Below, one piece after another: positions 9,001 through 12,000 of a stretch of 51,038 bases of DNA (the first letter of the stretch is position 1; every line of letters starts with the position of its first letter). The position numbers are program-made. Source of the stretch: a virus (lineage: Duplodnaviria; Heunggongvirae; Uroviricota; Caudoviricetes). The DNA is taken from the IMG/VR virus record IMGVR_UViG_2872180393_000001; one strand, given 5' to 3'.

Positions 9001-12000
9001 TGTATATTCACCGCCCTGGTGAGTAGTGCGTCCTGCTGATGGCTTAAAGATAACCTAGGTTATAGCGGTGGTCAATAACTTAATTTATGGATTCTGATAA
9101 ATAAGTTATAAGTGATGGATAATAAAGGTATTTTATTTTTGTAAATGTTGCGGATTGGTCGGTATTGGAAGGGGGGCGCTGTATTGCTGGCGTGTTGGTT
9201 CGTGGTTTACCGCATTTGCGGCTGTTAAATATGGGGGACGATCGCGAGGCAAAGAAAACCCGGCGCGGAAGCCGGGTTTGAGATTTAGTTATTTTCAGCA
9301 GCTCGGATAAGAGCGGAAGTGCTGACGAACATGTTCGAGCTCACCGAAACGTATGCGGCAGTAACTGCGCACATAAACCGGCTTGTCGTGTTCGTAGATG
9401 AAGTCATCGCGATTAACATCGTGAGCCATAGCTTTTCTCCTGTTTTTGTATACAGCCTGTTTACCCGAACAGGTTGTAGTTTGTTGGGAGAACCGCTATC
9501 CTTGGCTTGCGGTTGCCAAGGGTGTAGCGGTAGGTAATCCTCCATACACTTCGGAAATACTGGATATATTTCCGACCCAAAAAGCCCCGTTCCCTCGGGG
9601 CTTTATTCTTTTGTTCCGCCATCAATCATCGCAAAAGATTCCACAATCAGACTGATACGCTTGGCTTCATCTTTTGTCAGGTCGCGAGGCAGGTTGCCAA
9701 TGGTGACGATAAGATCTCCGCGCAATGGAATCGGCAGTTCAAATGTTTTTACACCAACCTGTACGTCAGTTACCGCCTTCTTCTTAGGTGCCATCTTTTT
9801 ACGCTCCTTTTTTTTATTTACATCACCAACTGACACATTAATCTCACCATTCTGGTAGGAGATAAATTTATCAATAGCACTTTGCATTCGGCTTTTGTAT
9901 GCCTGCAAAGATGATTCAGAGGGTTTGCTTTCTGCTGAGTCTGCGTACGAACTTGCTAAGTTGGCAACGCTATAATCACGGATATCGGCATCGGTGAAAT
10001 CCGACCCAAGAACAGTAAGAAGGCGCAGGGAAGAGTCACGGAGATTGCGGGCTGTAGCATCATTGACGATACCAAGCTCAGGAAGCATCTGTAAGAAGTC
10101 CTGAAATGCTTTGATGGTGTAGCTTTTGGTTTGCATAAAAAAGCCTCATACAGTTGATGAGGCAATACTAATTTGATCGTCAAAACAAATCAAGACCCAA
10201 GAAACGATCGTTGATTCCTTTCTTTGTGACAATACAGTCAAATCAAGTTTTACAAGGATTACTTTTCTTCGATTACATTAAAGGCCGCACTTCTGCGACC
10301 ATCCATCACCAAAATGTCTCTTCACTCATCCGAAGAAGCAGCAATCCGGGTCAGCACGCACAAGCTCAAGCGCATCAGTCAGCGAAAGTTCAGTACTGTA
10401 CTGATGCCATTTCATATCCTTCCGCATCCAATAGATTTTCCATCTATCCAGAGAACGTATGTACTTGATTCTTGCTGATGGCAGGATGTTTGTTTCACCT
10501 GGGTTGCCCTGCCACACGGGGCGCTGTTCGCCGATATCTATCGTTTGGTCATTGATGCTATAAACAATATCCAGTTCATTGCGGATATGTTCAGGCGGCC
10601 TTATGCTTTCAATGAATTGGTGAACTTCTTTTTTGACCGCTTGATATTCAAGGTCAGTGAACGCCATCTATCCTCCTCACCCAAACGTTTCTTCAGGCCA
10701 CTGGTTACCAGCTATGCGATGACCAGAATACTCTGCCAATAATCCTTACGGTTTTATGAAATTCATCTCTATCCATTACTTCATCCGGGTACTCTTCGCG
10801 ATTTATTGATCTGATTATCACCGATGTAGGAGTGGCGATTAATGTTTTTACTCGCAACAAATCAGACTGGCAAATAGCGTAGGTTTTACCATCTCTGATG
10901 GTGGTATCTTGTGTGTTAACACCAACAACATCGCCATCGTGAAGAGTTGGTTCCATGCTTTGACCTGTTACCCTTACCAGCTTGGCAGAACTTTCAGTTA
11001 CCCCCATCTTTTTCAGATAGTACTTTCTGAAAACCAAAGAGAACTCTGATGATTCTTCTATCTCGCAGCTACCGCTTCCAGCCGAAAGCGAAACGTTAAG
11101 AAGAGGCAATGCGACAAACTCGTCATCGTTTTTTTTAATGTCTTCCCATACCACAGCTTTTAAAGATGACTCACGGATATTGGATGGTTCTTCATGTGTA
11201 CCATCCCTCATTTCACCAATACCAGAACTAAGCCATTCAGGGCGTACTTTTAAAGCATTAGCTAACTCAACCATCTTGCGAGATCCGTTTGTTTTACCGG
11301 ATGACATCTTCTGTATGGCTGGCTGAGATATTCCAACCATGTCCGCAAGCTGTGATTGCGACACCCCTGCCGATCTCATGGCTGCATTTAGTCTTTCTGC
11401 GAATGTTTTCATATCCACAAATCTATAACTACGGTTATCCAAAGTAAAATAATAAAGGTTATTGCTATCTTTTATAACTTGGGTTATCCTTGGTTATAAG
11501 TAATGGCTGAAAGAGGTATGCTCATGAATTTAGTAATTCAACGAGCCTTGAAGATTGTCGGTAGTCAAAAGCGGCTTGCCGACAAGTGTGGTGTAACGCA
11601 GCCAGCAGTACACAAATGGCTGAAAGGCGGGCAGGTTTCTCCAGAGAAAGTTACCGCCATCGTTAACGCCACTGGAGGGCAGATCAAGGCTTACGAAATT
11701 CGCCCAGATTTACCACACCTGTTTCCAAAACCGAATCAGGCAGCATAAGTAACACCGCTATTTTCACAATGGGCATTCGTCCTACGTCGCTGACAAAGCG
11801 AGCCCCAAGATATCTGACCAACTAAGGCCATATGCGTTTCCACGCATAGCTTTCAACTAACTATTCACTATTGGAAATCTTAAGAAATGGAACAAACAAG
11901 TTACAGCAAACTATCACAGCGCGACGTTGATCGTGCAGAAACAGATTTACTCATCAACCTGTCAACGCTTACCCAGCGCGGTCTGGCAAAGATGATTGGC

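Follow-up and report, generated by a model that had tools for sequence, protein, structure and literature searches.

A conserved hairpin enclosing the ribosome-binding site of a prophage accessory gene as a candidate insulator against foreign transcripts

In the insertion sequences IS10 (Tn10) and IS50 (Tn5), external transcripts fold an inverted repeat over the ribosome-binding site (RBS) of the transposase gene, and the element's own transcript starts inside this repeat. This protection from outside transcription was reportedly described by Davis, Simons & Kleckner in 1985, Krebs & Reznikoff in 1986 and Schulz & Reznikoff in 1991. The promoters of IS50 and IS10 are also known to be Dam-sensitive. 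In phage lambda, the cI-rexA-rexB operon ends at tIMM and has the internal promoter PLIT. Prophages are furthermore said to carry morons, autonomous promoter-gene-terminator units reportedly introduced by Juhala/Hendrix in 2000. At the left end of IS200, a terminator acts against impinging transcription and a stem-loop in the 5′ untranslated region (5′-UTR) sequesters the Shine-Dalgarno (SD) sequence (PMC4513863). Here we analyse a hairpin located immediately upstream of a 177-codon gene, orf177, on the minus strand of a virus genome of the Caudoviricetes (IMG/VR record IMGVR_UViG_2872180393_000001), whose full stretch of 51,038 nt is called the window. The hairpin lies in the immunity region of a lambdoid Stx-type prophage, and its 3′ arm contains the SD sequence of orf177. 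We propose, with moderate confidence, that this hairpin insulates orf177 from foreign transcription by termination and RBS masking, and that the gene's own promoter bypasses it.

The positions of the hairpin and of all other features are compiled in Table 1. An earlier note, made from the sequence of the window, had described the stem, the U-run behind it and the SD sequence within its 3′ arm; these elements were found exactly as described, and they are evolutionarily maintained. RNAfold predicts a stable hairpin for the minus strand from 10180 to 10120, where it constitutes both the minimum free energy and the centroid fold at -10.1 kcal/mol. The SD bases GAGG pair with CCUC at 10162-10159, and the modelled probability of the SD being unpaired is ~0 when the RNA holds both arms. 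The terminator scan lists the hairpin with 7 pairs, 4 of them G-C, a loop of 7 and the tail TTTTTTATGC. As in intrinsic terminators, a G+C-containing stem with a loop within 3-8 nt is followed directly by a U-tract (UUUUUUAU), which is present in the window and not universal among relatives. The U6 run doubles as terminator tail and as spacer between the SD and the start codon.

Taken as one sequence, the hairpin is only mildly unusual. Dinucleotide shuffles folded at a mean of -7.2 ± 2.3 kcal/mol, which places the hairpin at z -1.24, and 25 out of 200 shuffles folded equally well. Among the 97 open reading frames (ORFs) of at least 100 aa in the window, whose 31-nt leaders have a mean folding energy of -3.8 (sd 2.9), the orf177 leader ranks 5th in stability, and in 3/97 leaders a perfect stem of ≥7 bp ends no more than 12 nt from the start. 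The terminator scan of 9300-11900 returned 9 sites versus 1.8 ± 1.4 in shuffles. An Rfam 15 covariance-model search of 9300-11600 on both strands, performed at relaxed thresholds, gave no match with E ≤1. That the hairpin is not a chance feature is concluded from its conservation among homologues rather than from single-sequence statistics.

Leaders were compared across ~60 loci (numbered with the prefix L), which came largely from viral contigs, metagenome contigs and exact-protein look-ups; a scan of genome contigs yielded 3 loci. The clade of distant homologues (39-45% identity: L004, L030-L037, L045-L050) has a different leader without SD hairpin and was left out of the structure test. An arm-anchored alignment, in which every loop was swapped for a fixed GAAA linker, took the place of a plain MAFFT alignment of the natural leaders, which had included L002 and left the arms misaligned. 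RNAalifold, run on 14 distinct natural leaders without L002 and L064, recovered the identical 7-pair stem, with the outer pair realised as A-U (6 leaders), G-C (5) or U-A (1). In the arm-anchored alignment, 78.6% of the cells were paired versus 32-51% with a slid partner, and double-sided changes were seen at three stem pairs. The number of double-change cells was 8 versus 3.7 ± 1.5 in shuffles, a value reached in 4 of 500 shuffles, with the caveat that this control can be beaten by related sequences without structure. Hairpins assembled from cognate halves averaged -11.4 kcal/mol versus -7.9 for halves swapped between lineages. Conserved or compensated pairing among the homologues thus has modest support (three double-change pairs, about four lineages). 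The hairpin is real and conserved, and it is probably functional.

The two possible activities of the hairpin are not equally widespread among the relatives. The U-run is retained in the subclade of the window and in L040, consists of four Ts in the L019 type, and is lacking in L026 and L038. These latter two still hold strong SD-containing stems of -14.6 and -12.2 kcal/mol, respectively, so that SD masking is the more conserved property, and termination appears to be an added property of the window's lineage.

A putative promoter adjoins the hairpin. The motif TTGAT(T/A/C)-17-TAnnnT, twice with a spacer of 18, is common to all 17 distinct leaders of the relatives with 45-100% identity; the invariant positions are T-12, A-11 and T-7, with variation in the spacer sequence and in the central bases of the hexamer. 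In L054, L058 and L065, the cassette promoter was detected independently by a promoter scan. In every hairpin-bearing relative, the -10 element ends 1 nt before the 5′ arm. The transcription start is predicted inside this arm, giving a 22-nt leader without the anti-SD sequence, and even the earliest plausible start at 10160/10159 would leave out the CC to which the GG of the SD pairs. Since the -10 element ends one base before the 5′ arm, the own mRNA of orf177 probably lacks the anti-SD. The earlier note had considered that the hairpin could terminate cI/orf113 transcripts, gate the translation of orf177, or both; with the conserved promoter in this position, a gating of the gene's own translation is doubtful.

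In models of read-through RNA, with 40 nt of upstream sequence included, the probability of the SD core being unpaired was ~0.00; for RNA beginning at the predicted +1 it was 0.20-0.28 in the window and reached 0.95 in L026. If the own-start RNA is given a long 3′ extension, the SD region (CUGUA.UGAGGCUU) is predicted to pair with codons 13-18 (AGGACUUCUUACAG; RNAfold, -12.6 kcal/mol), and in the same fold (window 10087-10149, minus strand) the start codon pairs with GCAU further downstream. The pairing with codons 13-18 looks specific to relatives sharing the FQDFLQ codons. It is absent from the predictions for several relatives with other codons, and a masking of the SD of the own mRNA by these codons was therefore judged incidental.

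Two GATC (Dam) sites are located at 10209-10206 and 10178-10175 on the minus strand, corresponding to -51 and -20 of the predicted orf177 promoter; one lies upstream of the -35 element and the other in the spacer, ~31 bp apart. Their positions are conserved in L003, L040, L054, L058, L061 and L063. In the 17 distinct homologous upstream regions of 130 nt, GATC was counted 36 times vs 6.9 expected, an enrichment that suggests a Dam- or SeqA-sensitive control of the predicted promoter. In addition, the sequence CTTGATT occurs at 10194-10188, where it forms the -35 element itself, and in a second copy at 10247-10241 near -89 (minus strand), with an inverted AATCAA at 10216-10211 between the two copies. 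CTTGATT and AATCAA recur at similar positions in the homologues, sometimes in the opposite orientation, and they may be bound by a regulator, for which orf177 itself is conceivable.

Blastn homology blocks to L003, L040, L054, L063 and L064 start at 10226-10194 and end at 9255-9247, which delimits a mobile cassette containing a regulatory region, the promoter, the hairpin, orf177, its terminator and a 44-codon ORF with a terminator of its own. The cassette was found directly behind different cI genes (L052, L054, L055, L058), behind cI-DUF3024 (window and L063), behind a dinI-like gene next to pepN (L056, L065-L068), opposite a dam gene (L060) and near gin in a Yersinia phage (L002). Because the homology block recurs in such varied contexts, the hairpin belongs to the orf177 cassette; its assignment to the cI/orf113 module was rejected, as it sits within the block starting at ~10226 and orf113 has its own hairpin. 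The terminator following orf177 reads as a terminator on the opposite strand too (9604-9579), and counterparts are present in L052, L054, L058 and L065. A predicted own promoter and an own terminator flank the gene, and the unit is present or absent among related phages and occurs in varied contexts; by its organisation, the cassette is a moron.

The 44-codon ORF downstream of the terminator of orf177 travels with the cassette and is missing in L052. It is far more conserved than orf177, with 75-95% identity where orf177 has only 47-56%, and 28/44 positions are invariant. In the SH2026Stx1 annotation it is a hypothetical protein (gp19), and a Pfam search with it gave no match. A 12-pair inverted repeat (TACAGCCTGTTTACCCGAACAGGTTGTA on the plus strand) is located at 9451-9478 between the terminator of orf177 and the 44-codon ORF and is conserved in L065 at 4658-4685.

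The observed hairpin with its conservation and covariation, the adjacent promoter motif and the varied contexts of the cassette can be joined to a mechanism as follows. The cI repressor gene and orf113 (10326..11412, minus strand) are the co-directional upstream genes whose transcripts would enter the hairpin. Polymerases from this repressor operon (PRM/PRE, cI, orf113) would pass the weak hairpin at 10300-10283 and transcribe both arms, the nascent read-through RNA would fold GCCUCAU onto AUGAGGC, followed by U6, and part of these transcripts would end there as at an intrinsic terminator. In read-through transcripts escaping termination, GAGG would be locked in the stem and orf177 would remain untranslated. 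Transcription from the own promoter would start at A10158 inside the 5′ arm, yielding an mRNA that is neither terminated nor masked. As both arms would be contained only in transcripts started upstream, the cI transcripts would fold the hairpin in a lysogen, and because the predicted promoter of orf177 starts inside it, the hairpin probably stops or silences transcripts derived from cI. The net outcome would be that, at any site of insertion, the own promoter alone determines the expression of orf177. We infer the start site, the termination and the masking in vivo, and we consider the chances about evenly balanced that the hairpin serves a self-contained accessory cassette of the prophage as its 5′ insulator.

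The distribution of the hairpin among the relatives is consistent with an insulating role. In L052, L054/L055 and L056/L065, no other terminator-like site separates orf177 from the co-directional gene upstream. In L058, a strong terminator directly follows cI and the orf177 leader has no SD hairpin, a layout complementary to that of the window. L060 and L061 have neither a co-directional upstream gene nor a hairpin. Of the roles envisaged in the earlier note, the termination of cI/orf113 transcripts is the best supported one, the hairpin being the only intervening terminator-like site in relatives that have cI or a dinI-like gene directly upstream.

Several points weigh against an insulating function. 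The single-sequence stability of the hairpin is not significantly beyond that of shuffles (z -1.24), the covariation signal is carried by only about four independent lineages, and mismatches weaken the hairpins of several relatives (L003, L020, L064, L068, L002). As the U-run is absent in L026 and L038, termination is not the conserved function everywhere. Phylogeny confounds the correlation of presence and absence, as the relatives without the hairpin are at the same time the most divergent ones. The promoter of the window matches only 8/12 consensus positions and for this reason was not listed by the scan of the window, and the start inside the 5′ arm, which is the key step, is predicted solely from promoter geometry. 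In the own-start RNA of the window, a longer 3′ extension is predicted to engage the SD with codons 13-18. Finally, the hairpin at 10300-10283 may already stop most of the read-through.

The alternatives were weighed against the same observations. It is unlikely that the hairpin acts within the own mRNA of orf177 and constitutively throttles its translation by SD masking, keeping a harmful product low in lysogens. The GAGG inside the stem and its conserved pairing would suit such a role, as would the partial SD accessibility in own-start RNA models (0.2-0.3, falling to ~0 with a long 3′ extension), but a canonical start would leave out the anti-SD CCUC, given that only one base separates the conserved -10 from the 5′ arm, and there is no alternative conserved promoter further upstream in the cassette, where homology begins only at ~10226. 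Moreover, there is no sign of toxicity: orf177 has no PADLOC or Pfam family and looks DNA-binding. The toxic exclusion factor proposed in the earlier note accordingly found no support, given that orf177 lacks a Pfam or PADLOC match, belongs to a PHROG of unknown function and has an integrase-like N-terminal domain. An RNA thermometer was considered as well and was set aside; the pairs of the stem are all Watson-Crick, and the own mRNA is predicted not to contain it.

It is improbable, too, that the hairpin is simply the intrinsic terminator of a cI-orf113 operon, with the SD overlap as an accident of a compact genome and without translational role. Its anatomy is that of a good terminator (7-bp stem, 4 G-C pairs, UUUUUUAU), and in L052 and L054 it is the sole terminator-like site after cI. 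The annotators of 933W placed the pM terminator far downstream of cI, so that the hairpin after DUF3024 was evidently not regarded as the operon end. A plain terminator does not explain, however, why L026 and L038 keep the SD-containing stem without any U-run, nor why the element travels with orf177 and not with cI and its 3′ arm is always the SD.

We regard it as quite improbable that the complementarity has no function and arises from chance and shared ancestry, the SD being kept as SD and the 5′ arm as promoter-proximal sequence. The weak single-sequence statistics and the few independent lineages point in this direction, as does a shuffle control that related sequences can exceed without structure, but three Watson-Crick types occur at the same outer pair, differing inner extensions each pair with their own partner, and hairpin-less relatives demonstrate that the sequence after the -10 is not constrained to CCTC. 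Very improbable is an operator at the DNA level, bound over the start site by a dimeric regulator such as possibly orf177: although the palindrome spans -5 to +16 of the predicted promoter, conserved CTTGATT repeats and GATC sites lie nearby and orf177 has an integrase core-binding-like domain, this possibility was rejected because the distance from the CCTCAT core to the ATGAGG core varies from 7 to 20 nt among the leaders and several arms maintain their pairing only by means of G·U, a mismatch in a DNA palindrome. The variable distance and the G·U pairs, which are found in the sense orientation in L013, L038, L056 and L026, favour an RNA stem, and the 3′ half-site is accounted for by the SD.

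If insulation of orf177 against foreign transcripts is the correct reading, a small accessory cassette is expressed independently of the repressor operon behind which it has inserted, and one 21-nt hairpin serves as both terminator and RBS mask for incoming transcripts while being invisible to its own promoter. Genes downstream of cI would then not need to be co-expressed with cI, which would be useful for annotating prophage immunity regions, and the arrangement would represent a compact natural insulator design. A more far-reaching view, to which we assign a low probability, is that the ~980-bp unit from 10226 to 9247 is an undescribed portable prophage module insulated on two sides. It would combine a Dam-sensitive promoter (conserved GATC at -51 and -20; CTTGATT repeats), a start-embedded hairpin silencing every foreign transcript, a DNA-binding orf177 with its integrase core-binding-like domain and an ultra-conserved partner of 44 aa, and would provide, in the rexAB slot, a new lysogen function such as defence or regulation. 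In that case, no IS10-like fold-back protection device would have been described in an accessory cassette of a phage before this hairpin.

Homologues of orf177 (53 in Enterobacterales, with 99-39% identity) are all unnamed and belong to PHROG 2602. The N-terminal four-helix domain of the protein resembles the DNA-binding core-binding domain of integrases, and the C-terminal ~45 aa are very conserved. Searches gave no Pfam match above threshold, no PADLOC match and no PDB sequence-profile match, and no transposase domain was detected in the Pfam and PHROG searches. Compared with known superinfection-exclusion and defence proteins (RexAB-like and others), there was no sequence-profile match. Literature searches yielded no usable text on this gene family.

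With regard to the wider setting, the 2-kb stretch from 9500 to 11500 is 96.9% identical to phage SH2026Stx1, which carries the same cI/orf113 annotation, and 99.8% identical to two E. coli chromosomes (FDAARGOS_944 and O39:NM F8704-2). Among 5426 complete E. coli genomes, only 6 contain most of this query, in contrast to the widespread cI and DUF3024 modules. Phages of the 933W type share only 10716-10282 of the window, that is, the DUF3024 gene with the hairpin 10300-10283, which travels with their module. Beyond 10282 they carry a RuvC-like gene and stk, with the annotated pM terminator further downstream, in the order pM-cI-DUF3024-RuvC-like-stk-tM. As the similarity to them stops there, a mosaic joint is placed at ~10282, and the sequence from 10282 to the N region is a different module. 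Over its full length, the DUF3024 protein orf113 matches PDC-S43, a candidate defence model of PADLOC (E 7.2e-42); 933W-type Stx phages share this protein, encoded there directly behind cI.

Further genes in the window were noted. A 968-aa Toprim primase / AAA_25 helicase-like replication protein is encoded at 13354-16260 on the plus strand. It appears to be interrupted by an intein: about residues 379-634 contain Hom_end-associated Hint and LAGLIDADG_3 domains, and HNT occurs in the translation shortly before the helicase part resumes. An ORF for an IS3-family transposase (rve, HTH_21) is located at 6730-7548 (plus strand) just downstream of the first genes of the N operon, and a gene for a nucleotide modification associated domain 5 protein (Nmad5, E 5e-71) adjoins N at 7730-8413 (minus strand).

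Table 1. Features of the orf177 cassette, its leader variants and the surrounding immunity region (window coordinates unless a locus is named).
Feature	Position	Strand	Evidence or remark
Hairpin	10143..10163	-	sequence; RNAfold; terminator scan; covariation among homologues
Hairpin 5′ arm GCCTCAT	10163-10157	-	sequence
Hairpin loop CAACTGT	10156-10150	-	sequence
Hairpin 3′ arm ATGAGGC	10149-10143	-	sequence
Shine-Dalgarno GAGG, inside hairpin 3′ arm	10147-10144	-	sequence
TTTTTT (U6) run between stem and ATG	10142-10137	-	sequence; terminator scan
orf177 start codon ATG	10136-10134	-	sequence
Predicted sigma-70-type promoter	10165..10193	-	-35 TTGATT 10193-10188, 17-nt spacer, -10 TAGTAT 10170-10165
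Predicted transcription start A10158	10158	-	A of CCTCAT, 7th base after -10, C at -1; canonical promoter geometry
orf177, 177 codons	9603..10136	-	ORF; phrog_2602, function unknown
Mobile cassette (~980 bp)	9247..10226	-	blastn blocks vs L003, L040, L054, L063, L064
Strong terminator after orf177: AAAGCCCCG-agggaa-CGGGGCTTT then TT	9579..9604	-	sequence; terminator scan
44-codon ORF	9295-9429	-	SD GGAG 9440-9437
Terminator-like hairpin after 44-codon ORF: CCCGGC-N6-GCCGGG-TTTTCTTT	9276-9251	-	
Window-type leader			GCCTCAT-N7-ATGAGGC
L052 leader			AGCCTCAT...ATGAGGCT
L019/L022/L065 leader			CACCTCATA-N7-TATGAGGTG
L038 leader			CATCTCATAA-N5-TTATGAGGTG
L056 leader			CACTTCATAA-N5-TTATGAGGTG
L026 leader			TTCCTCATCAA-N5-TTGGTGAGGAA
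L040 leader			CCTCA(a)CG-N4-CGTGAGG
L058 terminator after cI: AAAAGGTCGC-TAAG-GCGGCCTTTT then TTTG	L058 2717-2740		
First terminator-like hairpin after orf113: GGTCGCA-GAAG-TGCGGCC, weak tail TTTAATG	10283..10300	-	terminator scan
orf113, DUF3024 gene	10326-10667	-	E 2.4e-31
cI-type repressor (HTH_3 + Peptidase_S24)	10705-11412	-	
Cro/YdaS-like gene	11503-11748	+	
N antiterminator	8415-8798	-	

Compared with the systems described so far, the hairpin falls among known kinds, namely terminators, anti-SD fold-backs and the insulation of morons. Like ordinary Rho-independent terminators, it has a stem (7 bp with 4 G-C pairs), a loop of 7 and an adjoining U6 run, but it differs in being placed 6 nt before a start codon, in holding the SD of that gene and in a U-run that is not universal. 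The cassette resembles morons by its conserved predicted promoter, its strong terminator and its presence/absence mosaicism among related phages, whereas a terminator/anti-SD hairpin over the own start site is outside their usual description. With the rexAB genes of lambda and the genes between cI and tM of 933W, orf177 shares position and orientation, downstream of cI and upstream of N/PL, and as in lambda the distal accessory gene has a separate promoter (predicted here). The protein is, however, unrelated to RexA/B, Stk and the RuvC-like protein, and the accessory gene appears to be insulated from the cI transcript instead of being co-transcribed. IS200 likewise blocks incoming transcription and sequesters an SD at the 5′ edge of a small mobile unit of Enterobacteriaceae; it uses two separate hairpins, with the SD stem-loop within its own mRNA, whereas in the orf177 cassette a single hairpin could fulfil the two tasks, and the own mRNA is predicted to lack it. 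As in IS10 and IS50, the predicted own start lies between the arms, with the 5′ arm upstream of the start in all hairpin-bearing relatives, the 3′ arm covers the RBS, a mobile cassette lands behind foreign promoters, and GATC occurs in the promoter as in the Dam-sensitive T1 promoter of IS50. In contrast to these elements, the stem is followed by a U-run and so could terminate too, the own start is a predicted one, and the cassette has neither transposase nor terminal inverted repeats. It is not an insertion sequence, and the likeness to IS10/IS50 is therefore one of functional analogy and not of membership. No major concept is changed, as terminators and anti-SD stems are familiar and IS10/IS50 provide a known precedent, and insulation of this type is tidy but ordinary.

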